A stretch of DNA of 63,528 nucleotides, counting the filler, from Vannella sp. (lineage: Eukaryota), in the NCBI GenBank assembly GCA_023345925.1. It is 7 parts of 7 records of this genome, joined end to end, with 100 filler letters (N's around TTAATTAATTAA, not from the genome) between each part and the next. Parts side by side here need not be neighbours in the genome. Positions count along the whole stretch, not along the records: positions 21,508 to 38,157 come from JAJQQN010000546.1; 6 more parts are not named here. The stretch is one strand, 5' to 3'. Below are positions 7,501-54,828 of this stretch, in pieces (the stretch's first letter is position 1; each line of letters begins with the position of its first letter). Under the pieces are notes generated by a model, which searched no databases, was not told the origin of the DNA, and saw nothing but the letters and a program-made list of their open reading frames with translations. Both the position numbers and the translations under genes were made by a program.

Positions 7501-7841
7501 TGAAGTCACTCCAGTCAGGGACAACGTTGTCAATGGAATTGCAGACGGGAAAGGGCTCATCAAATATGTGTATCATGTGCCCGAGGACTTTATCGGGTTT
7601 GGAGTCACCATTTCTCCGGTAGTCGACGGCTCTTCTCAGTTTTTCGTTTACAACAGACGTTCGGAGGAAAACTTTGGCACCAGTGACAATGTTACCTCGT
7701 TCGCTCTTGGAGCAAATGCAGGTGATGTGTTTGAGATTGAGGTGGAAAACTACGACGCCGGGAGCCTCTTCTCCTTCCAATTGGGCTTCATGGAGTATCC
7801 GCCAATCCTCCGCATCACCAGTCCAACGGATGATATCTCCC
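1529..7841 (+). CDS. LRR gene A: signal peptide, LRRNT cap, ~21 LRRs (19 internal 69-nt exons), Cys cap, Ser/Thr mucin stalk, MRH (M6P-receptor homology) domains and an unassigned beta-rich region; 3'-truncated by contig end
   Basis: Exon 1 1529-1791 (MLWHVFLLAF..WNISSDPCTDGWFGVLC..LSGNNLTGILP). 69-nt exons start at 1845, 1962, 2078, 2203, 2318, 2433, 2552, 2670, 2787, 2906, 3029, 3140, 3253, 3386, 3501, 3623, 3737, 3851, 3994. Last exon runs from 4111 in frame with ORF 4160-7897. All introns GT-AG except one GC-AG. MRH motifs YDFEPL..YEFNLCG..C..VAVC..YSDGASC..C..ACR..SRKAC. Confidence 0.9.
4820..5160 (+). repeat. 42-bp coding minisatellite (14-aa unit SVSVSASATRTTSL) in the stalk of LRR gene A
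   Basis: Repeated unit gagtgtatctgtgagcgcgtcagccacgagaacaacatcctt; about 4-5 near-identical copies, with more degenerate flanking copies back to ~4570. Confidence 0.9.
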
Positions 7842-17976: not shown

Positions 17977-18315
17977 TCCTGTTCAACCCCCTCTCCTGAG
18001 AAAACCACTTACACCGAAGAGGGCGTGGACTGGTCGAAGATGGACATGCCCAACGAAGAGGGACGCCAAAAAAGTGGAGAAAAGCACTGGAACCTCTTCT
18101 TGACCTTCGCCACCTTTATGGCTCAATATTAGACTCGTATCACGAGTCTTCCAAGATTCCATCAACACATGCATGTTGCGCCGTGGAAAAAACCAAAGTC
18201 ACGTGATCATTTCCCCTCTCAGCCTTTTTAACAGTTTCTTTGAATCACTGAATCATAGACTTGATAGGAATAGAAGGGGTTTCTTATCGTACTGTTGGAA
18301 CAGGCTCATTTTTCG

Positions 18316-21507: not shown

Positions 21508-22163
21508 CACATCGTAGCAGGTCTATTGATAGCTTTTGTCAGCTCATACTGGTGTTGGTGCTTGATGGTGCTTCTGTACATTGGTAAGAAGGCACGCATG
21601 CTCTCACCAACACGTGATCTCGTGCGGTCTGGTGACCGCGAGAGATGGATAAAGGAAACCTTTTATTCAACAATCAAGTCGCCTTCCTCCATCGTCGAGT
21701 AATGTTCGTCTTCGTGAGGAATAGATTATGAGAACGCAAATCTACTGAATAATAACCACTAAACGAAGTGCTGGAACACCTCTCTGCCAGTCTCTCAACT
21801 AATCAATGCATTCCTGAAAGACCAATTCTCAGCCTGCTCTCCCTCACTCGTGCCCAGCAGGAAGAAGAGTGCCGCTTCATTGAACATGTTGGATAGTTGT
21901 GTTCGCCCAGAAGATGAATTGAGCCGCAGAAGTTATCCTGATGACCTTCATCTCTTCAGGAGAGGATTTTTGGTTGACTATCTGTGAGCCACAGAAACTG
22001 ACTCAGGTACAGTGCCTTGACAAGAAAGACCAAAGAAGAAGGCATCCTAAGCAATTACGAAGCGTATTTTATAACTCAGGGAGCTGACAGGGTCCGCCTT
22101 CGATGCCGTTTCAACCATTTTTGGAATATCACATGAATTGCACCTGTACTGTCTTTCATTGGG

Positions 22164-23255
22164 ATGCCTTTGGGCGGCCACACGATCCTTCTCGACCTCG
22201 AAGGTCGCCTTTGGGGATTTGGATCCAACAGTGAAGGCCAACTTGGTCTCGGTTACGAAAGAGACGAATTTGAACCGGCGGAGATCTCCTGGAATGGCCC
22301 TCAGCCGGTTCAGTTGGAGGTTGGAGGGATACACTCTCTCATCCTTGATGCGCAGGGCGCTGTGTGGTATGCTGGCCACTCCCGAACCTGCTCTACCTCT
22401 GAAACCTTTCAACGATTGCCAGAACTTCCTTGTATCTCTTTGGTGGCTGCTGGTGGGTCTCACAGTGCCGCTATTGACGCTGAAGGCCGCCTTTGGGTGT
22501 GGACGAGCGACATCAGTCTCTCTTGGGCGTGTTCTCTTCCGCAACGAGTAAGAGGCCTTCCCCCAATCATTAATGTGACTTGTGGCTTCGGATTCCTTGT
22601 GGCAGAGGCCGGAGAAGACCTCTGGGTGTTGGGCGACAACTCAAAAGGGCAACTGGGCCTCGGCCACACTAACGACGCCCTTCAGCCGACTCTCGTTCAT
22701 GTGGAAGACCGTTCTGAAGGGCCTCTCCGATTCCTAGCTGCTCTCTTCGATGCAGTAATCATCATCGACTCGCAAGGAGCTGTCTTCTCTGCTGGAGGCA
22801 ACTCCTATGGCCATCTGGGACGCTCTTCTGGGGATCATTCGAAGCTTGAGCGAATCAACAACATCCCTCCCATGCTTGCGGCTTCCTGTGGAGGCGCTCA
22901 CACTTTCGCTACGGACGAGAACGGGGGAGTCTGGACCTGGGGATTGGGTGAATCTGGTCAATTGGGAACGGGCAACACCTCTAATCAGCCCGAACCTATT
23001 CTAGTCCCTTCGTTGGAGGGAATGAGAGCCGTTCTCGCGTTTGGGGAGCATTCTTGGGCGTTCCCACAGGAAGGCGGCCTTCTGGTCTTCGGACATAACG
23101 GTAGCGGAGGACTTGGACTGGGCATCAATACGCCGGATCTTTCCACTCCCACACTAAGTCTTCTCCAGCCCGCCCTCCCTCCCTCATTCATTCACCCGCA
23201 GCACACAGAAGAGCGCCCGTTTCCTTTGAGCGAGCCCTCTCGTGTCTCCCAATGA
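22164..23255 (+). CDS. RCC1-repeat beta-propeller protein (termini possibly frameshifted)
   Basis: Repeated GxxHT..LDxxGxLWxxGxNxxGQLGLG motifs (e.g. GFGSNSEGQLGLG, LGDNSKGQLGLG, WGLGESGQLGTG). Confidence 0.85.
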   Translation: MPLGGHTILLDLEGRLWGFGSNSEGQLGLGYERDEFEPAEISWNGPQPVQLEVGGIHSLILDAQGAVWYAGHSRTCSTSETFQRLPELPCISLVAAGGSHSAAIDAEGRLWVWTSDISLSWACSLPQRVRGLPPIINVTCGFGFLVAEAGEDLWVLGDNSKGQLGLGHTNDALQPTLVHVEDRSEGPLRFLAALFDAVIIIDSQGAVFSAGGNSYGHLGRSSGDHSKLERINNIPPMLAASCGGAHTFATDENGGVWTWGLGESGQLGTGNTSNQPEPILVPSLEGMRAVLAFGEHSWAFPQEGGLLVFGHNGSGGLGLGINTPDLSTPTLSLLQPALPPSFIHPQHTEERPFPLSEPSRVSQ

Positions 23256-23376
23256 CTCCCTTCATCAATCAGAACACTTTCCCACAACAGAGAGAGAGAA
23301 TGATCGCGTTTTGAGAGGCAAGGGATGGTGAGGCACCCGAAGAAGCTTCATTTCCTTGGGTGCGGGAGCGGGTGGC

Positions 23377-24906
23377 ATGGCGGGAGGACTTTTTGCTCCA
23401 TTTAGAAGAGGGCGCTGCTCTGTTGCTGGTTTGTGGAGCAAGAGGAGCGTCAAAGAGATCTTTGAGGCATCTGAACCGGTTGGTGAAAGAGAGAATGGCG
23501 AGTCTGTGCTTCCGAACCAACTCAAAGCCTTTGGATGGGTCCAGACTGTTCGCCACTCGAAGGCTTGCAGCTTCCTGGAGCTGAACGATGGAAGCACGTA
23601 CCATAACCTCCAGGTGGTTATCGATCACGATAAGATGACGAAGGAGCAGAAGCAACAGCTCCTCACCGGCTCTGCAGTGGAAGTGAGCGGTCAATCTGTC
23701 TTCTTTGAGCAAAAGAAGACTGGAAAGCGCTTACCAGAGCTTCATTGTCAATCATTGGTGGTAACTGGCGCAAGTGACGAAGGCTACCCCCTCCAGAAGA
23801 AGTACCATTCACGAGAGTTCCTTCGGGAGATTCCCCATCTTCGCCCTCGAAGCCGTCGCTTCGCTGCCATCATGCGGACAAGGAGCCGTGCATCCCTTGC
23901 TCTTCAACAGTACATGCAGAAGGAAGGATTCTCCCAGATCCACACCCCGATCATCACTTCAAGTGATTGCGAAGGATCGGGCGATCTCTTCGCCATAAGC
24001 GCAGGCAAGGACAAAGAGAAGCTCTTCTTTAACAAGCCAGCCTACTTAGGTGTCTCAGGACAGCTCCATCTGGAGGCATTTGCATGCTCCATGAGCAAAG
24101 TGTTCACTTTCGGTCCTACTTTTCGTGCAGAGCAGTCCCAGACCCCGCAGCACCTCTCAGAGTTCTGGATGCTCGAGCCTGAACTAGTAAATGCGTCATT
24201 GAGTGACTGCGTGGACCTCACAAGGAACCTTATTGTGAATGCCACTCGCTCGGTGATGGAAAACTCTTCTGGCGACTTGGACTTCCTCTTGGAAGGATCC
24301 ATTGACGAGTACCAACGAAGAATGAAGCAAAGCACTGATTCAGGAGGGCCCACAAGCTACGCTGATACTCTGGCGCCCTCGGAACGGACTATTCAGCATC
24401 TGACTTCGCCAGAGTCCTATCAAGTTATCACTTATGATGAAGCCATGTCCCTTCTATCGAAGCACTCTTCTGCGCTCTCTACACCAGTAGATTACCAGGA
24501 GGGACCGACCAGGGAACAGGAATTGTATTTGGTCCATAACATCTTTGAGGGTAAGCCAGTCTTCGTTTTACATTATCCTCGCACCCAAAAGGCCTTCTAT
24601 ATGAAAAGGTCACAAGGAAATTGTGGAACAGCGGCTTGTATGGACCTTTTAGTACCAATTGTTGGCGAAGTTGCTGGAGGAAGTGAGAGAGAGGACTCTC
24701 TTGAAGTACTGATCCAGAATATGCAAGAAAAGGGAATGGGAGATACTCAAGAATACGATTGGTATCTGGACCTCCGTCGATATGGTTCAGTCCCACATGC
24801 GGGATTCGGTCTGGGCTTTGAAAGATATTTGCAGCTTATCACCGGAACCAGGAACATTCGAGATGTTGTAGCGATGCCACGGGCCTATCAGCACTGCCAA
24901 CTTTAA
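23377..24906 (+). CDS. NARS2: Asparagine-tRNA ligase, mitochondrial/bacterial type
   Basis: GWV.TVR..FLELNDGS OB-fold, YPLQKK..EFLREIPHLRPR, TPIITSSDCEG, VSGQLHLE, FGPTFRAE..HLSEFWMLEPE, WYLDLRRYGSVPHAGFGLGFER. Arg-rich presequence-like N-terminus. Confidence 0.93.
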   Translation: MAGGLFAPFRRGRCSVAGLWSKRSVKEIFEASEPVGERENGESVLPNQLKAFGWVQTVRHSKACSFLELNDGSTYHNLQVVIDHDKMTKEQKQQLLTGSAVEVSGQSVFFEQKKTGKRLPELHCQSLVVTGASDEGYPLQKKYHSREFLREIPHLRPRSRRFAAIMRTRSRASLALQQYMQKEGFSQIHTPIITSSDCEGSGDLFAISAGKDKEKLFFNKPAYLGVSGQLHLEAFACSMSKVFTFGPTFRAEQSQTPQHLSEFWMLEPELVNASLSDCVDLTRNLIVNATRSVMENSSGDLDFLLEGSIDEYQRRMKQSTDSGGPTSYADTLAPSERTIQHLTSPESYQVITYDEAMSLLSKHSSALSTPVDYQEGPTREQELYLVHNIFEGKPVFVLHYPRTQKAFYMKRSQGNCGTAACMDLLVPIVGEVAGGSEREDSLEVLIQNMQEKGMGDTQEYDWYLDLRRYGSVPHAGFGLGFERYLQLITGTRNIRDVVAMPRAYQHCQL

Positions 24907-25079
24907 TTCTCAGAGCCTTCTCTCGCGTTTCCCGTTTGGAGATTCCCGTTCCAAGACATTGAAGGCGAATATACAGCCGGACTTTCATCTTCTAGTCTGT
25001 TTAGGTGGATAGTGGTTCAAGGAGATCTGCCAGACTAATGAAACACAGAACGCAGCTTTATGTCTCATTTACTCGAGAG

Positions 25080-27758
25080 TTAGTGCATGGGAGGAGAACG
25101 ACCAGTGATACTTTGATGATCCTTTCCAGGGTTGTTCATCATATCCACTCCCCCGAAGAGGCCAACGATAGTGTGGCGCAAAGAGCGCTTTTCCGCCTGG
25201 GTGGTTCTTAGCCCGGCTGGTTTAGGTTCAGAAGCACCGCCTTGTCTTGCGACAAGGACTGCCGCAACAACGACTGCCGCAACCACAATTCCAGCCAATC
25301 CGAGAAGAACAATGCCTCCACCGACTGTGCCTATTACGATACCTGCGATAGATCCTCCACTCAATCCGCCGGCTCCTCCTCCGGCCGATCCTGCCCCTGC
25401 AATGGCGGCTTCTCCAATACTGGAAGCTCCGGTGACCTCTGGTCGAATCAAAACAGATGCAGGGAGTCCAGCTTGCAACGCTCCTTGGCTTCCTGTAACG
25501 ACTCCAGTTGAAGATATTCCCAGAGCCGCTCCCTCTGGACCAGCAGCGGCACTGGAAAACGCCTCGACAATCGCCTGGGCTGGAACTCCAGTTGATTGAA
25601 CCACGAACGAGAATCCGCTGACCAGACTTTTTGTATGGGCAGCGCCCTTGCAGTAGGCATTCTGTCTAGAAGGGCGGACTTGGATGTTTGTTGTGGAAGG
25701 ATCTGACTTGGTCAAGGAGAAGAACATAGCCAGCCAATCATCATCATTGATGCAAACACTTAGAGTTACTGTCAGAGTTGCTGAGGTGCTCAATTTTAGA
25801 TTAGAGATGGTTGGCCGTGGTTCGCTTTGGGAAGAAACCCAAAATGACATAGTTCCCAGCTTTGGGAAGTAACTTCCAATAGTGTTCGCAGTGTACTCGT
25901 TTGTTGCACCATTAGAATCAAACTTAAGGCTGAGAAGGATTTTTCCGTTGCTGTCGTCCCATCCCATTGAGAATGTGACTTCCAAACCGTTTGCTGAAGG
26001 AAACGGGATAGTTCCCAGGGGAGTATCACAAACGCTGATCCCATTCAGAATCACACAGAATTCAAGGGATGCAACCATTCCGTCAAGATTGCTGAGGACC
26101 CATTGCAATCGATCGGTGGAACGTTTAGAGCCTGCTTGCCCAGTTCGGGAAGCAAAAGCTACACTCCCAGATGATGCCTTGATCATAAACGTCTCAGAAG
26201 TTGTGTACTTGTCCACAACATCCCCAGACTTGTCCCAATTGATGAGAAAGTCTCCGTTCTGGTTCGTGGAGAGAAACTGTCCTTCAACGCTCAAGCCAAC
26301 AGGAGAAACAGGCGAAAGTTGAGTAAAATCCAGCGCGTAGTCAGGAACTCCAGTTGCGGCCTTATCGGTAATACACTCGCCGCTAGCAGTGTCTTTAGTA
26401 CCCAGTGGGCAAGAGCACAAGTTCGAGGAGCAAACCTTTCCGCTAGAGCAGGTGCCACAACTGTACAATATCCCACAGACCAGGGCGTTTCCACAGTCGA
26501 AACCCGTTGAGGCACACTGTTGCTGCTCGTCACACGGTTCAGAAAACTCTGCTGATGTAGCCGAACTGGTACCGGAGATGGGAGAAATGGATGGGGCCTC
26601 AGTTGGGCTCGTGGTGGGAGGGTTGATTTTACCCGCTGGAAGGTTTGAAGGGGCAATTGAGCACCGAGATTGAGCGTCGCACACTTGATCCGCTCCACAA
26701 GTGCCGCATACTCCTCCGCATCCATCAGGTCCGCAACTCTTTCCGTAGCAATCATAAGTGGCACATGAAGTAGCCAAGCCTCGGCTTGTTGTTAGAGTGA
26801 ATCTTGGGCTTTTGGAATTCAGTAAGTACCCGCGCATTCGAGCTACTTGGTTCTTTGTAAAGTATTGCATACAAGAGTCATAGTTGTACTCCATCACATT
26901 GCGAAGCATCACCGTATTTCCACATCGGACGAATCCGGTTGTGCTGTCTTGAATGTTGCAGGGATTTGAGGTAGAAATCCAATTGTAGGCAAGTTCGTCT
27001 GTCTTGGGGGTGTCAGCAATCCCATCTCCAACACCGGCACACGAATCTCCCTCGAAAGTGTGGTGAAGTCCCAACCAATGACCAGTCTCATGTGCCAAGA
27101 TATTTCCCGCAATCTCGGGATCTCCTAAGTAGGTGTAGTCCAGTACACAGCCATCTTCAGCAAATGGGATAGTAGAAGGCATGTAAGCTAATCCTGCGGA
27201 TCCGTCGTTGATCCGGCAAGTGTAAATGTTAAAATACTTGCTCGAATCCCAGATGTTATCTCCTCCTCGGGCCGTGAAGAATGGGGTGTCACTATCGCAA
27301 GATTCTGCAACTTTGCTTGTGACATAACGCACTCCGTCAAAGGGTTTCCCGAGTGGGTCTTTTGCTGCCAACTCGAATCTGATGTTGAAATCTCCGGCCA
27401 CGGCCACAACAGAGGAGAACATGTCGGAGGTATTGTGATGCAGGTTTCTACCAGAAAACCAATCATTCAACCAACCCATCTCTTTAAGGATGGTTTCCCT
27501 GCTAACTCGGTTGGCTGCACTATCAGTTAGGACGTGCCACACTACTGGTATCCGCAGCACTGTAGTTGCTCTCTCAAATAGGTTTCCGTTGTTAGTTACT
27601 TCCTCAGCCAGGCGTTCGATGGCTTCTGAATGCTCCAGAAACCAGGTGGATTGTTTTAGACGATCCGTACCACACTTGGAAGGAGGTCGAAGCCCTGCTG
27701 CATGCGCAAGTGATGTTGTCACCAAAAGAGAAAGTAAAAGAACAATCAATGAACGCAT
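25080..27758 (-). CDS. Membrane-anchored M43 (pappalysin/ulilysin-like) zinc metalloprotease 1
   Basis: Signal peptide from ATG 27758, prodomain KCG, IPVVWHV, HETGHWLGLHHTF (HExxHxxGxxH), DGIADTP, Met-turn NVMEY, Cys-rich CGPDGCGGVCG modules, C-terminal Gly-rich TM and tail. Intronless. Confidence 0.92.
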   Translation of the reverse strand: MRSLIVLLLSLLVTTSLAHAAGLRPPSKCGTDRLKQSTWFLEHSEAIERLAEEVTNNGNLFERATTVLRIPVVWHVLTDSAANRVSRETILKEMGWLNDWFSGRNLHHNTSDMFSSVVAVAGDFNIRFELAAKDPLGKPFDGVRYVTSKVAESCDSDTPFFTARGGDNIWDSSKYFNIYTCRINDGSAGLAYMPSTIPFAEDGCVLDYTYLGDPEIAGNILAHETGHWLGLHHTFEGDSCAGVGDGIADTPKTDELAYNWISTSNPCNIQDSTTGFVRCGNTVMLRNVMEYNYDSCMQYFTKNQVARMRGYLLNSKSPRFTLTTSRGLATSCATYDCYGKSCGPDGCGGVCGTCGADQVCDAQSRCSIAPSNLPAGKINPPTTSPTEAPSISPISGTSSATSAEFSEPCDEQQQCASTGFDCGNALVCGILYSCGTCSSGKVCSSNLCSCPLGTKDTASGECITDKAATGVPDYALDFTQLSPVSPVGLSVEGQFLSTNQNGDFLINWDKSGDVVDKYTTSETFMIKASSGSVAFASRTGQAGSKRSTDRLQWVLSNLDGMVASLEFCVILNGISVCDTPLGTIPFPSANGLEVTFSMGWDDSNGKILLSLKFDSNGATNEYTANTIGSYFPKLGTMSFWVSSQSEPRPTISNLKLSTSATLTVTLSVCINDDDWLAMFFSLTKSDPSTTNIQVRPSRQNAYCKGAAHTKSLVSGFSFVVQSTGVPAQAIVEAFSSAAAGPEGAALGISSTGVVTGSQGALQAGLPASVLIRPEVTGASSIGEAAIAGAGSAGGGAGGLSGGSIAGIVIGTVGGGIVLLGLAGIVVAAVVVAAVLVARQGGASEPKPAGLRTTQAEKRSLRHTIVGLFGGVDMMNNPGKDHQSITGRSPPMH

Positions 27759-27965
27759 CGACTGCCAAGAAAGAATTGAACAGACATAAGCTATCGATTG
27801 GAGTGTTTCCCCAATCACGGACCGTTCAAGGAATGCTCCGTGAAGTCACGTGACGGAAAGTTCTTTTTTTGGTCCGGAACGCCACGGACTATTCCTTGAA
27901 TGGTCCGTGGCGTTGGAACTACCTCTTTTTGTTTCTCCTTCTCGCACAACTTTTCTTTCCTCAAG
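27759..27965. promoter_or_regulatory. 207-bp bidirectional promoter of the M43 pair
   Basis: Divergent ATGs. Dyads CGGA-N3-TTC-N3-GAA-N3-TCCG at 27818-27840 and 27885-27907, degenerate copy at 27854-27876, and palindromic E-box GTCACGTGAC at 27845-27854. Confidence 0.75.
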
Positions 27966-30683
27966 ATGAACAGTGCTCTTCTGTGCTTCCTTTCCCTGCT
28001 GGTGGTCTCAGTATTTACTTTGGATGAGGAACGGATCCCTCTGCACTCCAAGTGCGGGCATGATCTCCTCAAGCAAACGCCTTGGTTTAAAGATCATGAG
28101 GAGGACATCCAGCGTTTGGTAGAGAATGTGGCTGCTAATGTACACCTCAACCAAAGAGATAACCCGGTATTGCGAATTCCAGTGGTGTGGCACGTTCTCA
28201 CTGACAGTGCTACCAACCGCCTAAGCCGAGAAAAGATCGTGGCAGAAATGACGTACTTGAATCAGTGGTTCTCAGCTAAGAACACGAATTTCAATACCGG
28301 GGACCAGTTCTCCGCCGTTGTGGCTCGGGCGGAGGACCTTAATATCCGCTTCGAGCTTGCCTCCAAGGACCCTTTGGGTAACCCAACTGACGGCATTCGT
28401 TATGTTACCTCCAATATTGCTGAATTGTGCTCTCTTGGAAATACCTCCAACTTTTACACTTCTAGAGGAGGAGACGACATCTGGGACTCGCGGAAGTACT
28501 ACAATGTGTACACTTGCAAGATCGCAGGTGGTGTCATTGGGTACGCCTACTATCCAGGTGCCGGTAAAGGTTATGACGGGTGCGTGATGGACTATCGATA
28601 CATGGGAGACTTGTCACACACCGGAGACATCTTTGCTCACGAAACTGGACACTGGCTCGGACTAGCTCATACGTTTGATGGCGAATCTTGCGCCAAAGAC
28701 GATGGTATTGAGGACACCCCAAACACGGACCAATCTGCCTACGCATGGCCAGGAGCAGATTTGTGCAACTCGCAAGACAGCAAAACGTCTTTCGTGCGCT
28801 GTGGAGTTACGTCGATGGTCCGCAATGTGATGGATTACAATGAGCCTTATTGTAAATCCTACTTCTCAAAGGGACAAGCTGCTCGAATGCGCGGATACTT
28901 GTTGAATCCTTCTTCTCCCAGATCCACCTTGAACTTCAGTCCAGGATTGACTCCTTCCTGTCCAACTTTCAACTGCCTCAACAAGGCATGCGGTCCCGAT
29001 GGATGTGGAGGGGTTTGCGGTCTCTGCCCCACGACAAAGGAATGTGACAGCAGCTTCCTTTGCTCGACGCCACTGATCCCAGTTTCAACCAGTTCCAGTC
29101 CCTTGGCCCCACCTCCCTCAAAGAGCGGTGCACCTTCAATCTCTGCATCGTCTGGAGCTTCCACTTCGTCTACCGGTTCAATCTCTCCTGCGGCTTCGAT
29201 TTCAAACTCTCCTTCTCCTTCTGCTAAATGCAATGAGGTTCAGCAGTGTGCAGCCAAAGGATTCGATTGTGGAAGCTCACTTATTTGCGGAATCACCTTC
29301 AGCTGTGGAACATGCGTTTCAGGAAAAGTCTGCTCTTCCAACAAATGTTCTTGTCCTCTTGGTACAACAATCACCAACGGGCAGTGCGTCACCAACAATG
29401 TGCCAACAGGGGTTCCAAACTACGCATTGGACTTCAGCCAATTATCTCCCGCTGCTTCAGTAGGATACATGGTCACTGGACAGTCTCTTTCTATGAATCA
29501 GAGCGGAACAGTCCTCATTAATTGGGACAAATCGGCTGCTGTCGTGGACAAGTACACAACTTCAATGACTTTTAATGTTAAGGCGGATGCTGGAACCACC
29601 TTAGGATTTGCATGCAGGACTGGCCAAGGTTCCGGCCGTTCCTTAGATAGATTGCAATGGAGATTTACCAACTTGGATGGAACCAACGCACAACTCACTT
29701 TTGGCATCGTTATGAACGGAATATCAATTTACGGAAATAGCATGGGAGTCGTACCGTTTCCTTCTGCAGCTGGTGTTGATGTAACTTTCACAATGGGATG
29801 GGACGATAGCAATGGATCTATTCTTCACGGCCTGAAATTCATTGCAAACGGAACACCATATTCTTACTCTGGAATTGCATCCGGAAGTAAATACCCTGCG
29901 CTTGGTACCATGTCCTTCTTCTTTACCTCCCCTGGGCCTCCTAAGGTCCTGATGCTCACCAATTTGAAGTTGGCCACTTCTGCGACTCTGACAGTGACCC
30001 TGAGCGTTTGCATCAACGATGAGGATTGGAAGGCAATGTTCTTCTCCTTGACAAAGGCAAATCCGGCCACAACCGTCGTCCAAGTCCGGCCCTCCCAGCA
30101 GAATGCTAACTGCAAGGGAGCAGCACATTCGAAAGGTCTCACCAGCGGATTCGCATTTGTTGTTGAATCAATTGGCGTTCCAGCACAGGCTATTGCAGAG
30201 GCATTTGCCAGTTCTTCTGCTGGCCCAGAAGGAGTGGCAATGGGGATCTCTTCAACAGGCGTCGTTGCAGGAAGCCAAGGAGCGTTGCAAGCCGGTCTAC
30301 CATCATCTACTTTAATCGGCCCAGAAGTCTCAGGGGCTACCATTATTGGTGAAGCTGCCATCGCAGGAGCTGCTGGAGGAGGAGGAGGAGCAGGAGGATT
30401 GAGCGCCGGATCTATTGCTGGCATCGTCATTGGTTCTGTTGGAGGAGGTATTCTGGTTCTTGGATTTACTGGAGCAGTAGTTGCTGCTGTGGTTGTCGCT
30501 GCAGTGGTCGTGGCTCGAACAGGTAATTCAGAGGATACTACATCCCCGCAACCAATCCATAATCCAACTGATAAGCGTACTTTGCGGAAGACAATCGTTG
30601 GCATTTTTGGCGGGGTTGACATGATGAACAACCCCGAAAAGAACCATCAGAGTATTACCGGAAGAGCTCCTCCAATGAATTAA
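27966..30683 (+). CDS. Membrane-anchored M43 zinc metalloprotease 2 (paralog of 25080-27758)
   Basis: Same architecture and collinear along the full length: HETGHWLGLAHTF, NVMDY, CGPDGCGGVCG, TM, tail GGVDMMNNP..HQSITGR. Start at ATG 27966 (MNSALLC). Confidence 0.92.
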   Translation: MNSALLCFLSLLVVSVFTLDEERIPLHSKCGHDLLKQTPWFKDHEEDIQRLVENVAANVHLNQRDNPVLRIPVVWHVLTDSATNRLSREKIVAEMTYLNQWFSAKNTNFNTGDQFSAVVARAEDLNIRFELASKDPLGNPTDGIRYVTSNIAELCSLGNTSNFYTSRGGDDIWDSRKYYNVYTCKIAGGVIGYAYYPGAGKGYDGCVMDYRYMGDLSHTGDIFAHETGHWLGLAHTFDGESCAKDDGIEDTPNTDQSAYAWPGADLCNSQDSKTSFVRCGVTSMVRNVMDYNEPYCKSYFSKGQAARMRGYLLNPSSPRSTLNFSPGLTPSCPTFNCLNKACGPDGCGGVCGLCPTTKECDSSFLCSTPLIPVSTSSSPLAPPPSKSGAPSISASSGASTSSTGSISPAASISNSPSPSAKCNEVQQCAAKGFDCGSSLICGITFSCGTCVSGKVCSSNKCSCPLGTTITNGQCVTNNVPTGVPNYALDFSQLSPAASVGYMVTGQSLSMNQSGTVLINWDKSAAVVDKYTTSMTFNVKADAGTTLGFACRTGQGSGRSLDRLQWRFTNLDGTNAQLTFGIVMNGISIYGNSMGVVPFPSAAGVDVTFTMGWDDSNGSILHGLKFIANGTPYSYSGIASGSKYPALGTMSFFFTSPGPPKVLMLTNLKLATSATLTVTLSVCINDEDWKAMFFSLTKANPATTVVQVRPSQQNANCKGAAHSKGLTSGFAFVVESIGVPAQAIAEAFASSSAGPEGVAMGISSTGVVAGSQGALQAGLPSSTLIGPEVSGATIIGEAAIAGAAGGGGGAGGLSAGSIAGIVIGSVGGGILVLGFTGAVVAAVVVAAVVVARTGNSEDTTSPQPIHNPTDKRTLRKTIVGIFGGVDMMNNPEKNHQSITGRAPPMN

Positions 30684-31503
30684 TACAACTGTTTTTCGTA
30701 TGCATCACAATTTCATCAAAGGTATTTGGGACAGTCGGACATGTTGCAATCTTTGTCACTAAGATTCTTGACTTAATGGAGTTTGAAAGAAATGAACAAC
30801 ACGCCTTTTGCCATTTTCTGTGGCTCATCAGAAGATCCTGGGAGATACCTTCAGTTTGCAGGATCTGAATGAAGTGCTGAGATACCAGGAAAGTGCCAAG
30901 TCACGCATCTTTGCTTCATTATCACCTTGTTCTTGGTAGGCAGATTGCTGCATTCCCCGAGTAGATTTCCTCAGACTTCTTTTCTTCTCTGAGGTCGCTC
31001 ATTAGAATAATCGTTTCAAGAAACTAACAGCTCCTTTCAAACAGCTTGCATTATGACTTTTTGTTGACTCTTGGTGGCATTTCCCAGATGGACCTCTTTC
31101 GAGCCCAACGAGAAGTGATCAATTCTCGGTGGTTTCCTTCCAATTTATAAGGTTCTGGTGATCAGAACGAGGTGTCTGTAGTAGCAACAGGAGGAGAATT
31201 GTGTGGTGTTCAAAATATGAACTTCTTTAGGTGTTCTGTAGCGCAGGAAAGGTGTACCATGAAGAAATCTTGTTTCCATGACCTGATGTGCTCCCCTTCC
31301 CGAGTGCCTAAGTGACAGCAGTTCCCAATGTTTCAAAAGGATTCCGGTTTGCGTGAGCTGAAAGTTGCGTCTTCGAACCTCACCTCTTTCCTGGAGATTT
31401 CTGCCTGGTAAGCTAAACCTTGCTATTCTTGCCTTTTCTCTTTCCAAAGGTGCTTTTCATTTGCACGTGCCGGGAATTGGCTTCAACTGAAAATCAATCA
31501 TAT

Positions 31504-34500
31504 TCACTCGTTGCAATCGAATGTTGGTGTTCGGAAACAGAGACTGACTTTAGAGATAGTCTTTATTTCCTTCCAGAGTTCGTTCGATGAACTGATTGAA
31601 TCGATAATGCTTCGGCTAGTCTGACAAAGGTTTTGATCTTCTTCCTCCTTGCCCAACAAGAGAAGAGCAAAGCTTGTGAGATGATCCGTTTCACCGCACA
31701 GCAGATTCTGCCAATCGGCATGATCTGCACCTTTGGAGTTGATGGTGGTGAGGCACTTGTCTTCGCACTTCCATTTGTCGCTGCTTGGGTCATAGAAACT
31801 CAGGCATACCTTCTCGTTTTTCTTGGTGTCGTTGGAAAGGGCCAAGCAGATGGTCAACGGAGAGAGCAGTTGGGAGATGGATTTGCCCACTTCCTGGAGA
31901 GTGATATTCACGACAACGCTTCTCAGTACTTGGTTGTTATAAGATCCACGCGATCCATTCCACCCAGAGTACGTTGTGGTCAAAGTTGCGTTTTTCAGTT
32001 TCTCCCAGTCCTCAGGAATCACAAGGCCTCCAAGAAGTTCCTCAGCAGGAAACCCTGGTAGGTCCACTAATCGATCAGAAGAAGAGTCCACTACTTGCAA
32101 AGAGAGCGTGAATCTGTCAATGGAGTGCAGTATGGCTGCACTAGCAGATACAGTTTCTGCTAGACTCTCGGAATTGGCCACCCTGAGAGATTGCCGAGTC
32201 GGTAACTCTGCCAACGGGGTATCTTTGACCATACTCATCTCATTGGAAGATGTCAACGTTCTAGTGTCACTGGGAGATATCCCAGGATGGATAAGAGATT
32301 CTCTGACCTCAGTTGTACTGCTCAAGTACGAAGGAGATTCCGAAGCCTTTGAGGAATTAAAAATCGATGGGCTTGAAGCCTGAACCCCGGAGCTTGTTGG
32401 ACTAAGGCTCACGCTTAGAGTTGCACCAGGAGATCGAGACTGAGTTTCGGTCGAGTTGATTCGAGGTAGGGAAGGGAGAGAGGACATTGAAGAGCTTGTG
32501 AGTGTACCTGTATCCCCAGAGTTCATGGAAGCGATAGAAAAAGAATGACTTGGGGTAGAGGTTGTGATGATAGGGGAACTTGTGTAGGAGTTTGTTTCCC
32601 TAGAGGATAGGGTGTGGCTGAAAGAAGAGGAAGAGCTAGGAGTGATAGAAGCAGAATAACTAGAGGAAGCTGATGCAGCTCTGGAGTCAGTAAGAGAAGG
32701 TGTAGGGGAACGTGTCAGGGAGTTGGTTTCCCTAGTGCTGACACTGAGAGTAGCAGAAGAGGAATAGCTAGGAGTGACAGAAGCAGAATAACTGGGGGAA
32801 GTTGCAGGGGCTCTGGAGTCCGTAAGAGAAGGAGTTGGGGAACGTGTCGGGGAGCTGCTGACACTCAAAGTAGCAGAAGAAGAATAGCTGGTAGAGAGTG
32901 TGGAAGTTATGGTGGCGCTGGGAGACGGGGAACCATATCCGCAAACGCCTGAGGTTGAATTACAGATGGCGTTGGAATCGGTGAAACCAGGAGGAAGAAA
33001 AGAGCAGTTAAATGTCTGATTGGAGAGATCAACGAACGAGTAATTGTGAGAAAGCTCTGGTAAATCTCCACAAAGGCGGTTTCCCCCAAGGAAGAGAGTT
33101 ATTAAGGATGTAAAGTGATCCCATTTTGGAACGGTCCCTGTGATGGAGTTGTTCCGCGCGAATCTGGGAACAGTAAATCAGTTTCTTCTCCGATGTATAA
33201 GACAGAGATCTCTTCGATACTCACAAGTATCTCAAACTCGTCAAATTTGTCCAGTTTGGAAGAGTTCCGGAAATGTTGTTGTCGTCAATGATCCTGGATC
33301 CGTTTGTAAGTACGACTAAGGAGAGTGATGAAGAAACTCCGACATTTGCTCCAAACTCTCTAAGTTACGCCATTCTGGAAATGTTCCTGAGATAGAATTT
33401 GTCTCCAATCTCCTACAGAGAGTACTTGAGGAAAGTTACCAACTCAAAAAGATCCGAGTTACTCACATGTAGTATAAATGTCTATGCTTGGACCACTCAG
33501 GCAGGGAACCATTGATTTGATTGTTGTTCAATTTCCTGTTATAGATGAGATCTTCAATGCAGTAGTACCGTTTCAGGTATTCTTACATCTCGACGAGGTC
33601 GGGGCTGCCTTCCCATTCTGGAAGAGTTCCCTCAATTTGATTGTTTTCCAAATTTCTGAGGACTCTCGTCAGAAGGAAGGTTTCTTCTTGAGGGTACTGA
33701 CAGGTATCCAAGGAGAGTAAGATTAGACCAATCAGGAAGAGATCCGGTGATTCTGTTGTTGCCCAAGTCCCTGCAATAATTAATTAGTCTAAAGGATTGC
33801 TTTCTGCTTGCACTCACATTTCGAACAGATTTTTCTTGTTTGTCCATTGTGGAAGAGGGCCCTCAATCTGATTGTCATTCGAATATCTGCATTTGGGTGC
33901 TTAATGTCAAACATAAACTGTTGCTCCAAACTCACATTGTGTTGAGCTCGGACATGTTGAACCACTCCGGAATAGTTCCTGTAATATTGTTGCTTTGAGT
34001 TGATCTGAACAGATTTGTTACTCATCAGGGCATGCATTCACGGATAGGAAGTACTGACAATGATATCAGACGACTGAGATTGTCCCATTGAGGCAAAGAT
34101 CCAGAAATCTGATTTTGCCCCAAATCCCTAGCACAGATTACTTCTTCCTCTTCTTCAGACTCGGCTAGCTCAACTTACAGGTATGTTAGATTGTGAAGCG
34201 AAGGCCATTCAGGAATGCTCCCAGTGATGCGGTTGTTTGCCAAGCTCCTTCAATGAAAATGAGTAAAAGGATTATCAGAAGAATCTTCCTACAGAGAGAC
34301 GAGCGAAGAGAGTTTCAGATCAACAAGAGTTCCAGATAAGTTGTTAGAAGCCAAATAAAGGGCATACACACTGTTATTGCGACATACTACTCCAAACCAG
34401 GTTGAACAGGGCTCAGAGGTATCATTCCACTGGCCTACAGAGTTGCTCCAGAAAGCTCCACCTGTTGCGTTAAAAAACTCCAACAGCGAATTGATTTGTT

Positions 34501-34567
34501 CGTTGGGAAGAGCGCCATTCATGATTGCTACCATCGTCACGAAAAGGAGAGTCCTGGACAACCTCAT
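31504..34567 (-). CDS. LRR gene B: signal peptide, LRRNT, nine 69-nt LRR exons, Cys cap, Ser/Thr stalk, GPS motif; TM deleted (predicted secreted, or pseudogene)
   Basis: Exon 1 34293-34567. 69-nt exons 34179-34247, 34059-34127, 33936-34004, 33818-33886, 33702-33770, 33587-33655, 33467-33535, 33344-33412, 33225-33293. Last exon 31504-33163 is in frame with ORF 31504-32868 and contains LCGETDHLTSFALLL. Confidence 0.88.
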
Positions 34568-34771
34568 GCAACACGTTGAAAGAAGTAGTAGTTAAAAAAT
34601 CTACAGCGCAAACACACCTAGCGCTCGCGGACGGTTCTCGGAATGCTCCGCGAGCGCAAAAGAGCCTTTTTAGGAATCCGAAATAGGAAAGTCCGGACAG
34701 TTCCAGGAACGCTCCGGGAACTAGAGTAGGCCTTCCTCAGCTTGATTCCTCATCAATGGCTGATCAATTCC
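34568..34771. promoter_or_regulatory. 204-bp bidirectional promoter of the LRR B/C pair
   Basis: Divergent ATGs. Dyads CGGACGGTTCTCGGAATGCTCCG (34628-34650) and CGGACAGTTCCAGGAACGCTCCG (34694-34716). Confidence 0.75.
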
Positions 34772-37700
34772 ATGCGGTGGCAGTCTCTTCTCACGTTATC
34801 CTTTGTTTACGTATCAGTTTGCCTTCTACCTCTTGAAGAGACCAACTCTTTGCTGTCTCTTTACAACAGCACCGGTGGGGCTTTCTGGAGTAACTCTGTC
34901 CAAAAGTGGAACTCAAGCACCGATCCTTGTGGGGCATCCTGGTATGGAGTAAAGTGTGATGTTGCCAATAGCAGTGTTACTTCTCTCCAATTGCCCAACA
35001 ACAATTTGACTGGATCTCTTCCTGATTTGCAACTTCCAGGGCTCATTAAGTTGTAAGAATCTTCACCTCCCAAAACGTAATTGTTGAGAACCTTTAGGTA
35101 CTTGCACGACAACAAGATTTCTGGCCCTTTACCAGAATGGTCCAATCTCAGCAGTCTAAGTATTATGTAAGGAGAAGTCTTCACCAAAGATTGGCCTATG
35201 TATTGATTGACCTTCAGGCACTTGCATAACAACAAACTGTCTGGAACTCTCCCAGAATGGCCAACTCTGAGAAATCTAACCCAAATGTTTGTAGTTTCCT
35301 TCCTCCCAAGAAGGTTGAAGTTTTATTGATTGGATTGATCTGGATGACAGGTACCTATTTCGCAACATGATCACTGGTCCTCTTCCTCAATGGCTTTACT
35401 TGGATGCTCTCGACGAAATGTAAGCTGTCCCCTTTCCCAAAGTAGTAACTGAAAAACCGTAGGTTCTTGAGTGGCAATCAGATTAATGGAACTCTTCCAG
35501 AATGGAGCAACCTGGCCAATTTATACGAAATGTGAGTTCTTTCTTTGAAGGAAATCGGAGATATACTTACAAGTTCTCACAGGGACTTGGACTCCTGTGG
35601 GATCATTGGTACTCTCCCAGAGTGGACCAATCTAACGAACTTGAGATACATGTGAGTCATTAGAGATGGGAATGACAATGTTTGACTAGAATGACAGGAA
35701 ATTGAGGTTCAATCAAATTACAGGATCGCTCCCAAGATGGAACGGTTTGAATCTTTCTATTGACTTGTGAGGCAAATTGAGGTAAAACCACAATGACATG
35801 AAACTCATTCATCGGAACAGGAGATTAGAAGGCAACCACATCAATGGTTCACTTCCAGACTGGCCCAATCTTACGCGACTGAGTCTGTTGTAAGTTCCAT
35901 TTCTCTCCTCGAATTCTTATTTTTCAATGAGCTCAATCATGCAACAGGAATTTGAGATCAAACAACATCACTGGTACCCTTCCAGAGTGGGGGGCTCTGG
36001 AGAAAATGAGTCAATTGTGAGACGTTTCGTAAACTGTGAGTCAAACATGCTCACCAGACAACTACAGAATCTTGAGCAAAAACTCTCTCTCTGGCACTCT
36101 TCCTGATTGGTCAAATATGACAAAGTTGGCGTTCTTGTAAGTTACTCTCCCATACAGAATGCGGAAGTCCTTTGATGGTAGCCCACTCACCTCATTGTAG
36201 ATTTATTCAAGACAATTCGATCACTGGTACGCTGCCAAGGTGGCCAACTCTCAAGTCCCTGTTAATTGCTGAGGTTGGGGGAACTAACAATCTTTGCGGA
36301 GAATTGCCGGACCCTCGACCTCGCAATTACTCGGTGGATCTTTCAAATCAGATTTTTAACTGTTCTGTTCTTCCTCCTGGCTACATTTCCACTTTTGGTA
36401 CCTGCAATGCCACTTCTGGTGTCTGTGGATTTGGGTCGCCCTCCTCCAGCCCAAGTGGAACAATCACTCCCTCTCCCAGTGTTTCATCGTCCGGAAGTCT
36501 CTCGTCTAGCATTAGTTCGAGTCACACAAGTTCATCATCTCCTTCGCCAACTGAAAGTCTCTCATCCAGCATAAGTTCGAGTGGAACAAGTTCATTGTCT
36601 CCTTCGCCAACTGAAAGTCTCTCATCCAGCATTAGTTCGACTGGAACAAGTTCATCATCTCCTTCGCCAACTGGAAGTCTCTCATCCAGCATAAGTTCGA
36701 GTGGAACAAGTTCATTGTCTCCTTCGTCAACTGAAAGTCTCTCATCCAGCATAAGTTCGACTGGAACAAGTTCATCGTCTCCTTCGTCAACTGAAAGTCT
36801 CTCATCCAGCATTAGTTCGAGTGGAACAAGTTCATCGTCTCCTTCGTCAACTGAAAGTCTCTCATCCAGCATTAGTTCGACTGGAACAAGTGATTTTTCA
36901 TCATCCCTCTCAATTGGAAGTTTCTCATTAACAATGACAGCGAGTCAATTTCCATTATCTTCAATCACCAGAATCCAATCTGCAGGTAGTGGCCCTGAGT
37001 CTATTCAGATAAGCGAATCTGTTTCCCGAGGAATTGACAGCACCAATCTTGAAACCTCAGTTGTGCCAGCCAGTGTTTCCGTTTCTGCAGGTGGTACTCC
37101 CTTTGAGCCTCCCTTTCCAGGTAGACTTAATGTTTCCTGGGAGGTTTCGCATCTGTCTTCTCAGGAAATGGTCCTTCTGTCTGGCCATCCTGGAGTGGGA
37201 CTTCTTGGTTGTCTTGTTGTACCCTCTGACTGGGCGAAACCGGAGAACGCAATATTGACTACTTTCTACTCTGGCTGGAGCAAACCAAGAGAGTCTTACA
37301 ATCACCAAACGCTGGTCAGTGCGGTGATGAATATCACTCTTGGAAGGGATGGCAAAGACAAATCCATCTCCCAATTGCTCTCTCCGTTGACCATCTGCTT
37401 GGCCCTTTCCAACGACACCAAGAAAAACGAGAAGGTATGCCTGAGTTACTATGACCCAAGCAGCGACAAATGGAAGTGTGAAGACAAGTGCCTCACCACC
37501 GTCAACTCCAAAGGTGCAGATCATGTAGATTGGCAGAATCTGCTGTGCGGTGAAACGGATCATCTCACCAGCTTTGCTCTTCTCTTGTTGGGCAAGGAGG
37601 AAGAAGATCAAGATCTTTGTCAGACTAGCCGAAGTGATACCCTTGCGTGGATATCAATGGGAATGGTTGCGGGCGCGATTCTGGCTGTTGCTCTTGGGGT

Positions 37701-37791
37701 GATGGTCATTGAAGCGCACATCCGCTGGAAGCATTATCGATTCAATCAGTTCATCGAACGGACTCTGGCAGGACATAAAGACTATCTTTAA
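34772..37791 (+). CDS. LRR gene C: signal peptide, LRRNT, nine 69-nt LRR exons, Cys cap, Ser/Thr stalk, GPS (GAIN) motif, single TM, short cytosolic tail
   Basis: Exon 1 34772-35052. 69-nt exons start at 35098, 35218, 35351, 35463, 35583, 35698, 35821, 35948, 36068. Last exon 36201-37791 encodes CLSYYDP..KWKCEDKCL..LCGETDHLTSFALLL and TM LAWISMGMVAGAILAVALGVMVI. Confidence 0.92.
36493..36891 (+). repeat. 60-bp coding minisatellite (20-aa unit ESLSSSISSSGTSSSSPSPT), about 6.5 copies
   Basis: Consecutive 60-nt lines 36541-36900 are nearly identical. Confidence 0.97.
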
Positions 37792-37877
37792 AGTCAGTCC
37801 ACTGAATGAGAATTGATGATAACAAGCTGGACTAAATCCTGTGTGTTAGTGACCCGCGACTAAAGGGAGTGAAGCAT

Positions 37878-38157
37878 TCATTGTTTTGTGAGAAGGAGCT
37901 GGGCCAAAAGTCCTTCGTGTTCGAGCCATTGTCTCAAGGGCCCATCGCGCAGCACCCCTTCCACTGTTTCAAGTTTTTGCTCCACAATCCTGAGAATGGT
38001 CGCCTGCTGTGTTTCCCCGAACAGGATAGCGCGGTCGTTGGGGTTGCTCAAAGAGAAAAGAGGAGTCCCAGTACCCATCCCATCCGGAGGTCCAAAGGGA
38101 TTAATCTCAATCACAAACACTCGAGAAAGAGAAGGATCCACTGCCAAGTCGAGAACG
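37878..38157 (-). CDS. 3' fragment of a Cdc123/R2K-family ATP-grasp protein
   Basis: VFVIEINPFG..GTGTPLFS...D..IL....LRIV resembles the Cdc123-family C-terminal IExNPF..LF motif. Cut by contig end. Confidence 0.65.
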
Positions 38158-40163: not shown

Positions 40164-40183
40164 CCCTAAACCCTAAACCCTAA
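40164..40183. repeat. Interstitial telomere-type repeat (CCCTAAA)x~3
   Basis: ccctaaaccctaaaccctaa lies between two divergent ATGs. Confidence 0.85.
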
Positions 40184-46550: not shown

Positions 46551-47252
46551 ATGGCGGACTGGGCGCTGTTGGGTGAGTTTGCGGTGTACTTGGTGACCTT
46601 GTCCATTCTGGCGTTCCATCTGGCGAGTATCAACCCCGCACGGCCTTTCATGCCGTTGTTTACGACAACGGGGATCGCTTTGGCTGCTTCGTCGACTTGG
46701 TTTAGTCAGAGTTGGGACTCGTCGCACGAGTCTCTCATTACTCCTTGGTCTGACCCGCTTGGTAACAGTGCCATCTTGTTTGCCTTGGCCTACATGATTG
46801 CAGACCTCCCTCCTCTCATCTGCATGCACCAACTGTTGCCGTATGAGCGGGCGATGTTCGTCTTCCACCACGTCTTCTGCGCTCTCCACCTCTTCTGTGC
46901 TCTGTACTACGGGGAGTACCAGAAGGTCGCTGTGTTGGCTCTCACAGCAGAGATATCCAACATCTTCCTCAATGGGCGCAAGGTTGTGCCTCAAGGCGGC
47001 CTCGTCAAGCAGACTGCTGATGGTATCTTTGCGCTTACCTTCCTGTTCTATCGGTTAGGCTATGCTGTTCCCATGTGCGTCCGCGAGTGCATCTATCTCT
47101 TCCAACAAGGGAGATGGTTCGAGCTCTTCGTCCAGCATAGCGGGACCGTCTTCGTTGGCGCCCTACACATCTGGTGGACTTATCTGGTGCTCGACGGCAT
47201 TCGTGTGGTCATCGTGCCTCCCAAACAAGCCTCCAAAGCAAAGACGGACTAA
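46551..47252 (+). CDS. TLC (TRAM/LAG1/CLN8) domain membrane protein
   Basis: Multiple TMs with AYMIADL, FHH, AEISNIFLNGR, FALTFLFYRL, LHIWW. Confidence 0.85.
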   Translation: MADWALLGEFAVYLVTLSILAFHLASINPARPFMPLFTTTGIALAASSTWFSQSWDSSHESLITPWSDPLGNSAILFALAYMIADLPPLICMHQLLPYERAMFVFHHVFCALHLFCALYYGEYQKVAVLALTAEISNIFLNGRKVVPQGGLVKQTADGIFALTFLFYRLGYAVPMCVRECIYLFQQGRWFELFVQHSGTVFVGALHIWWTYLVLDGIRVVIVPPKQASKAKTD

Positions 47253-47273
47253 ACCCTAAACCCTAAACCCTAA
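47249..47273. repeat. Interstitial telomere-type repeat (CCCTAAA)x~3.5
   Basis: ctaaaccctaaaccctaaaccctaa, overlapping the TLC stop codon. Confidence 0.85.
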
Positions 47274-54571: not shown

Positions 54572-54828
54572 GGCTGAGCTGAGGTATCCAAAGCGACTTT
54601 CTTCCACTGAGGAGCCAACACACCCCAAACCGTGAGAGATGTCCCATTGAACAAATTAAATCAACAGGTCGACTCAAGTGATCTGTCACGTCCAACATGG
54701 AACTGTAAAGCTTTTAAATCACTTGAGTCGACCTGTTGATTTTATTTGTTCAAGGGGACATCTCTCACGGTTTGGGGTGTGCTGGCTCCTCAGTGGAAGA
54801 AAGTCGCTTTGGATACCTCAGCTCAGCC
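54572..54828. mobile_element. Long inverted repeat (111-bp arms, 35-bp spacer); MITE/foldback-like
   Basis: 54572-54682 is the reverse complement of 54718-54828 with 3 mismatches. The left edge coincides with the contig start, so no TSD can be assessed. The inverted repeat is certain; mobility is inferred. Confidence 0.55.

Follow-up and report, generated by a model that had tools for sequence, protein, structure and literature searches.

The stretch of Vannella sp. DNA analyzed here (GenBank assembly GCA_023345925.1), referred to throughout as the window, comprises 63,528 bases in seven contigs joined by N spacers. Two head-to-head gene pairs lie on one of these contigs (JAJQQN010000546.1, positions 21508–38157, 16.6 kb). 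The pair at locus 1 encodes putative M43 metalloproteases and the pair at locus 2 putative leucine-rich-repeat (LRR) proteins. Between the genes of each pair are two copies of an exact 23-bp dyad, CGGA-N3-TTC-N3-GAA-N3-TCCG, which is the subject of this study. A preliminary description, made from the sequence alone, had reported these four copies, their start-to-start spacings of 67 bp at locus 1 and 66 bp at locus 2, a degenerate CGGA-N15-TCCG copy at locus 1, and arms extended by 7 bp in copies 2 and 3, and we found all of these in place (Table 1). Counts given for the dyad refer to the window rather than to the genome.

The dyad is a real feature of these two intergenic regions. Allowing up to two mismatches turned up no fifth copy in the window (over 100 shuffles, the average was 0.31 matches and the most was 3), and a profile built from the four dyads scored them at 30–34 bits, with the next-best site in the window at 14. 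All five CGGA-N15-TCCG sites in the window fall in the two dyad intergenic regions, whereas TTCN3GAA has 34 window sites, only 4 of them in these regions. Since the dyad pattern was defined post hoc, we also compared the two loci with each other. The closest pair of ungapped 29-mers, one from each intergenic region, agreed at 24 of 29 positions; 200 shuffles reached no more than 20, and three control promoter regions gave 17–19.

The element extends beyond the 23-mer. Its eight half-sites read YCVCGGASNRTTC towards the center, with ~14 constrained bases per half inverted around a 3-bp center, so that the site is ~29 bp long and holds 14 invariant bases and ~8 more that are constrained. The symmetric positions are fixed, as had been proposed, but the N positions do not vary freely: position ±5 is a purine and position ±7 is C/G in all eight half-sites, position ±13 is C in seven, and position ±14 is a pyrimidine in seven. 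In the degenerate copy, the CGGA and TCCG ends and one RTTC are still present, but a run of T stands in place of GAA. In the open-access literature, the spelled-out forms CGG-N17-CCG and CGGA-N15-TCCG gave no match, searches for amoeba promoter palindromes gave nothing related, and no such motif appears in the passages of PMC5923282. The dyad is apparently undescribed. It would belong to a familiar class, that of palindromic sites bound by dimeric factors in compact divergent promoters; its length and its positional lock are unusual.

That lock is evident from the geometry of the two promoters. Each of the four genes, all with a predicted signal peptide, has one dyad at 55–60 bp from its ATG, and the two intergenic regions are laid out nearly alike, with successive gaps of 59/44/58 bp and 60/43/55 bp and ATG-to-ATG distances of 207 bp (locus 1) and 204 bp (locus 2). 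Among 12 genes checked, a dyad or half-site lay within 130 bp of the start in these 4 and in 0 of the 8 others, a comparison in which starts were hand-picked and are provisional for the eight dyad-less genes. Two other divergent promoters of the window contain no dyad, nor does a third LRR paralog (1529–7840) within 130 bp of its start. A sigma-70 scan of locus 1 returned 0 promoter-like sites.

Comparison of the paralogs points to purifying selection on the dyad. The M43 pair shares 105 of 283 fourfold-degenerate sites (37%) and the first exons of the LRR pair share 8 of 21 (38%), and each gene pair, judged by these values, is an old inverted duplication. Copies 1 and 2, when inverted, are nonetheless identical at 20 of 23 positions (binomial 1e-6 at the neutral rate), whereas the dyad-to-ATG spacers barely align (six comparisons, p = 0.04–0.51). 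It is this agreement between copies flanked by spacers that do not align that suggests selection, and the dyad-to-ATG distance has likewise been retained across paralogs. Because each promoter sits between two paralogs, however, the four dyads amount to two independent loci. The earlier argument that the motif is not simple paralogy is therefore valid when one locus is compared with the other, and not for the two copies at a single locus. The proposal of a protein-binding promoter element fared better, as the fixed distance to four ATGs and retention across saturated paralogs support it more strongly than was first argued, but the interpretation as a whole is supported only in part.

Table 1. 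Coordinates, in window positions, of the genes and promoter features at the two loci.
Feature	Position	Strand	Description
M43 (pappalysin-family) metalloprotease	25080..27758	-	Intronless, 892 aa, HExxHxxGxxH; PF05572 3e-21
Dyad copy 1	27815..27843		Core 27818-27840, perfect arms +3 bp; core end 59 bp from left M43 ATG
10-bp perfect palindrome GTCACGTGAC	27845..27854		Same 9-mer recurs at 18198, in the NMD3 divergent promoter
Degenerate copy	27854..27876		CGGA/TCCG ends and one RTTC
Dyad copy 2	27878..27914		Core 27885-27907, arms +7 bp; 58 bp before right M43 ATG
M43 paralog	27966..30683	+	905 aa, HExxHxxGxxH; PF05572 1e-17; 62% identical to left gene
LRR gene	31504..34567	-	Intron-rich, 10 modelled introns splitting LRR exons; Ser/Thr stalk; GPS-like motif
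48-bp unit with copy 3	34605..34660	+	Bounded by 8-bp direct repeat 34605-34612 / 34653-34660
Dyad copy 3	34621..34657		Core 34628-34650, arms +7 bp; 60 bp from left LRR ATG
Dyad copy 4	34691..34719		Core 34694-34716, arms +1 bp; 55 bp before right LRR ATG
LRR paralog	34772..37791	+	Ser/Thr stalk; GPS-like motif; one predicted membrane helix; ~20-residue tail

We interpret the dyad as a putative site at which the CGGA ends are recognized by a symmetric dimeric factor, likely of the Zn2Cys6 type, and we give this reading about an even chance (roughly 0.5). That it serves a dimeric factor of some family, whether this one or the STAT or CudA candidates considered below, is quite probable. CGG-N17-CCG is present in all five copies, presenting paired CGG triplets at a fixed spacing, as for a Zn2Cys6 dimer site. 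A CGG-reading factor is favored over STAT because the five CGGA-N15-TCCG sites are confined to the two promoters, while the TTCN3GAA motif is scattered through the window and accounts for 9 of ~29 constrained bases.

A comparable arrangement is the yeast oleate response element, CGGN3TN(A/R)N8-12CCG, which, in the passages of PMC2784042 that treat it, allows a 17-bp spacer, binds the Zn2Cys6 heterodimer Pip2-Oaf1, and acts in both orientations. As far as those passages and parts of PMC1911199 go, the two elements share inverted CGG triplets, a long spacer that may be 17 bp, a second patch inside the triplets, and bidirectional action. The Vannella element differs from what is set out there in that the spacer is fixed, RTTC occurs in both halves, the YCV flank is constrained, each gene has one copy at a fixed distance, and the targets encode surface proteins. 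Zinc-cluster factors are also found in amoebae, with 22 counted in Acanthamoeba in a section of PMC4053784.

Under the CGG-reading model, a Zn2Cys6-type dimer with a long linker would read the outer CGGA ends and activate the neighboring surface-protein gene from a fixed position. Each subunit may contact CGGA and reach RTTC, three bases further in, by way of an arm or linker, much as the oleate response element pairs an outer CGG with an inner patch. Each dyad would serve the adjoining gene and help to fix the start site within a shared promoter of 200 bp, and the two proteases and two LRR proteins would answer to a single signal, for which feeding and microbial contact are plausible candidates. 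The outer arms, which are specific to each copy, may have arisen incidentally when the polymerase switched template at the dyad. This origin fits because perfect outer arms, differing by copy, flank an imperfect interior. Portions of PMC13100816 describe inverted repeats that expand at yeast promoter sites by template switching, and the likeness to that account lies in perfect arm extensions that differ by copy at a putative dimeric site. The cases differ, on the same portions, in that there is no pair of ancestral and derived alleles here, so the event itself is conjectural.

Several observations weigh against this interpretation. None of the five copies matches the oleate consensus in either orientation. 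None of the four full copies departs from the TTC-N3-GAA core, and five of eight half-sites have a C beside the center, which suits STAT. Outer positions 12–18 pair within their own copy at 19 of 28 positions against a mean of 10.1, a value reached by 2 of 105 re-pairings of the half-sites, and a cruciform would give the same result. The dyads could sit within 5' leaders. There are only two independent loci, both on one 16.6-kb contig. The window has a dyad-free divergent promoter of 187 bp, and only 1 of the 12 genes, the third LRR paralog, shows a TATA box, so neither the shortness of the dyad promoters nor their lack of a TATA box is special. Finally, the factor repertoire of the host is assumed.

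Placement of the host rests on NMD3, encoded elsewhere in the window. Its five closest matches are 70–80% identical, and one of them is a cluster holding an MMETSP transcript. Among named matches, Balamuthia and Dictyostelium reached 56% and fungi 54–59%. In a quick, unfinished tree of the query with 35 of 120 listed matches, the clade of NMD3 and these closest sequences joined no named group. An amoebozoan host is plausible.

The strongest of the alternatives, though in our view unlikely, is that a STAT dimer occupies TTC-N3-GAA with two rigidly spaced partners on the CGGA flanks, making the genes a surface regulon controlled by phosphotyrosine. In its favor, all four full cores match the gamma-activated site (GAS), TTCnnnGAA, as given in a part of PMC3564941, and STATs are known from Acanthamoeba and Dictyostelia according to extracts of PMC4206453 and PMC6873476. 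NMD3, as described above, does not show the host to be amoebozoan. The preliminary description had made this motif a STAT consensus, and that identification stands for the core but covers only the central 9 of the element's ~29 constrained bases. Relative to the GAS of the same part of PMC3564941, the Vannella element has ~20 more constrained bases reaching out to ±14, a fixed position, and a degenerate copy that retains the ends while losing half of the STAT core. The motif is also common: the mouse genome has more than 1 million GAS sites, at most 10% of which are bound (PMC3564941, in the portion that gives these figures), and the window alone has the 34 noted above. High-affinity GAS sites take the forms TTCCNGGAA and TTCYNRGAA, and these occur here in 1/4 and 2/4 cores, respectively.

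Elements of the two readings could be joined in a rigid composite, in which the core would be occupied by a STAT-like dimer and the CGGA ends by zinc-cluster domains. Such a complex, either two proteins or one fusion restricted to the lineage, would set the start site of an inducible surface regulon for defense or feeding, and the copy number of the site itself would vary in the wild by tandem duplication of a 48-bp unit. We regard this as improbable.

Equally doubtful is a reading in which two adjacent dimers of a CudA-like or other Ig-fold factor each bind a G(G/A)A-N3-T(T/C)C sub-dyad, so that the site consists of four alternating trinucleotides with a 6-bp period. A relaxed four-trinucleotide pattern has five matches in the window, four of them the dyads, and periods of 5 and 7 give none. 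The GAA half-sites recognized by CudA itself reportedly stand in the opposite order to those of STAT, according to work by Yamada and colleagues in 2008, and the likeness to the Dictyostelium/Entamoeba CudA dyad lies in these GAA-type half-sites. The family is also confined to Amoebozoa in the relevant lines of PMC8808424. The site here is, however, a four-patch site with CGGA ends, and its trinucleotide units are not interchangeable because the outer one is always CGGA and the inner one always TTC (8/8 half-sites). The YCV flank is left unexplained. Two other families were considered and rejected. Heat shock elements are built from alternating GAA units with a 5-bp period; none of the four full copies conforms, the unit period here being 6 bp. 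The TEA/TEAD half-site, GGAAT(G/T), is present in only two of eight half-sites.

The element might instead act as a structure, formed either by promoter DNA (a cruciform or single-stranded hairpin) or by RNA (a hairpin of the 5' leader), although this too has little likelihood. At spacers of 3–21 bases, no perfect inverted repeat in the window is longer than those of copies 2 and 3 (arms of 12 and 11, with 0.22 expected at 11 or longer), these two alone fold strongly, with DNA z-scores of -8.0 and -4.2, and the outer arms pair within copies even though their sequences differ. Template switching, however, would account for outer-arm pairing without selection. The stem letters are invariant with no compensatory change and the loops are free, which fits recognition of duplex DNA. 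The inner variable bases argue against a hairpin because they do not pair: 5 of 16 do so within their own copy, against a mean of 6.6 over all 105 half-site re-pairings. For RNA of the transcribed strand, z-scores were -1.0, -8.0, -4.2, and -1.2 for copies 1–4. Rfam returned no match at the dyads and one sub-threshold match at 32685–32743, which is unrelated.

The least probable alternative, that the dyads are remnants or ends of a mobile element or a promoter cassette copied between loci without shared regulation, draws on the near-identical geometry of the two promoters, a slight common polarity (one orientation gives the best match, 19–20/23, among copies 1, 3, and 4), and the 8-bp direct repeat flanking copy 3, but the promoters share no sequence outside the dyads, there is no consistent target-site duplication and there are no terminal repeats, and insertion would not put four copies 55–60 bp from ATGs. 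Contig depth over the promoters was 1–3.6, not raised over flanking single-copy DNA, and that over LRR exons was 8–14. A search of locus 2 at 80% likeness, which is blind to motif-length matches, returned four records only, all at least 99% alike. Common ancestry of a promoter cassette is possible, yet selection would still be needed.

Those records come from three DNA runs of one biofilm-metagenome study (X1, X2, and X3) that cover the stretch and may be the source of the assembly, so they are not independent of it; no RNA run was listed as covering it. They contributed 2, 0, and 2 records, respectively, for locus 2; locus 1 contigs, 83% alike over 29 bp, were below the reach of the search. 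One X2 contig spans 27587–28012 with zero differences, and one X1 contig spans 34621–35154 and differs at a single position, which is not in a dyad. One 78-base X3 contig (depth 2.7) carries the 48-bp unit with copy 3 joined head to tail through its 8-bp repeat, and an X1 contig over most of the unit has no such joint. The X3 joint may be a true tandem allele or a single artifactual molecule.

Scans of other collections were made for comparison. Nine metagenome loci had dyad pairs 30–60 bp apart; among the matches listed, these were tandem or coding repeats, and none had the divergent-promoter layout. Two unrelated families of short arrays recur in metagenome contigs, built of GGAATGTTCC-like and GGAACCTTCC-like palindromic units (L006, L008, and L009; L001 and L004). 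In prokaryote genomes, the 29-bp consensus gave nine single copies in nine unrelated taxa, eight of them under an open frame (1–4 expected by GC), which we read as chance. Two scans of viral contigs gave 1 and 9 single copies, with one contig shared and 7/9 under an open frame; no M43 relative was found on viral contigs.

The genes flanking the dyads are predicted to encode secreted or surface proteins, and genes in the window are eukaryotic in build, with short GT-AG introns. All four products begin with a hydrophobic, signal-like segment, and the left M43 protein has a signal peptide and a C-terminal membrane helix (all judged by eye). The preliminary description had called them surface proteases and LRR receptors. 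The protease and LRR assignments were borne out, but "receptor" was not, as there is no cytoplasmic signaling domain. Surface anchoring of the LRR proteins is likewise supported on one side only: the right gene keeps a predicted transmembrane helix, and the left has lost its anchor with a 97-nt segment, present in the right paralog, that is missing between two GAAG repeats, and it ends in a different frame. The 3' ends of these paralogs (31542–31885 vs. 37359–37799) are 94–97% identical and the first exons 68%, a difference that suggests recent gene conversion. The third LRR paralog has its TATA box at 1481–1490, 47 bp before the ATG, and carries a long Ser/Thr stalk and a mannose-6-phosphate-receptor-type repeat.

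Both M43 genes (25080–30683) are intronless, and their long-form homologs are, save one 41% match, mostly PKD-repeat proteins with precomputed domains including PF18962, hinting at a bacterial origin. Homolog searches returned 10 matches for M43 and 6 for the GPS region, none with a taxon or DNA context. The GPS-like region matched atlas clusters at 0.92 and 0.90, which serves as a lead only.

Other features of the window were noted in passing. The 9-mer GTCACGTGA is confined to two divergent promoters, those of NMD3 (18198–18206) and M43 (27845–27854), with three strand matches at the two places (shuffle mean 0.39); we take it, and the palindrome GTCACGTGAC that contains it, to be E-box/CLEAR-like. 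Short intergenic runs of TTTAGGG type, telomere-like and reminiscent of plant telo-boxes, lie at 40168–40180 and 47251–47270, one of them within the 187-bp divergent promoter. A PIP5K gene at 56537–59554 is fused to an NmrA-like domain and EF-hands. At a contig end, an inverted repeat (54572–54828) with 111-bp arms, 97% complementary and 35 bp apart, is either an element resembling a miniature inverted-repeat transposable element or an assembly fold-back.

To our knowledge, only a small number of cis-elements have been described in free-living protists, apart from those of a few model species. The dyad is a well-supported motif at two loci, and its length, specificity, and positional lock mean that the regulon could be listed by one genome scan and the factor identified by one pull-down. 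Should that factor be a STAT, the dyad would provide it with a direct target site and a set of genes in a unicellular lineage and bear on the origin of STAT-driven immune programs. If it were instead a zinc-cluster protein, the dyad would show a role in a protist for factors studied largely in fungi.

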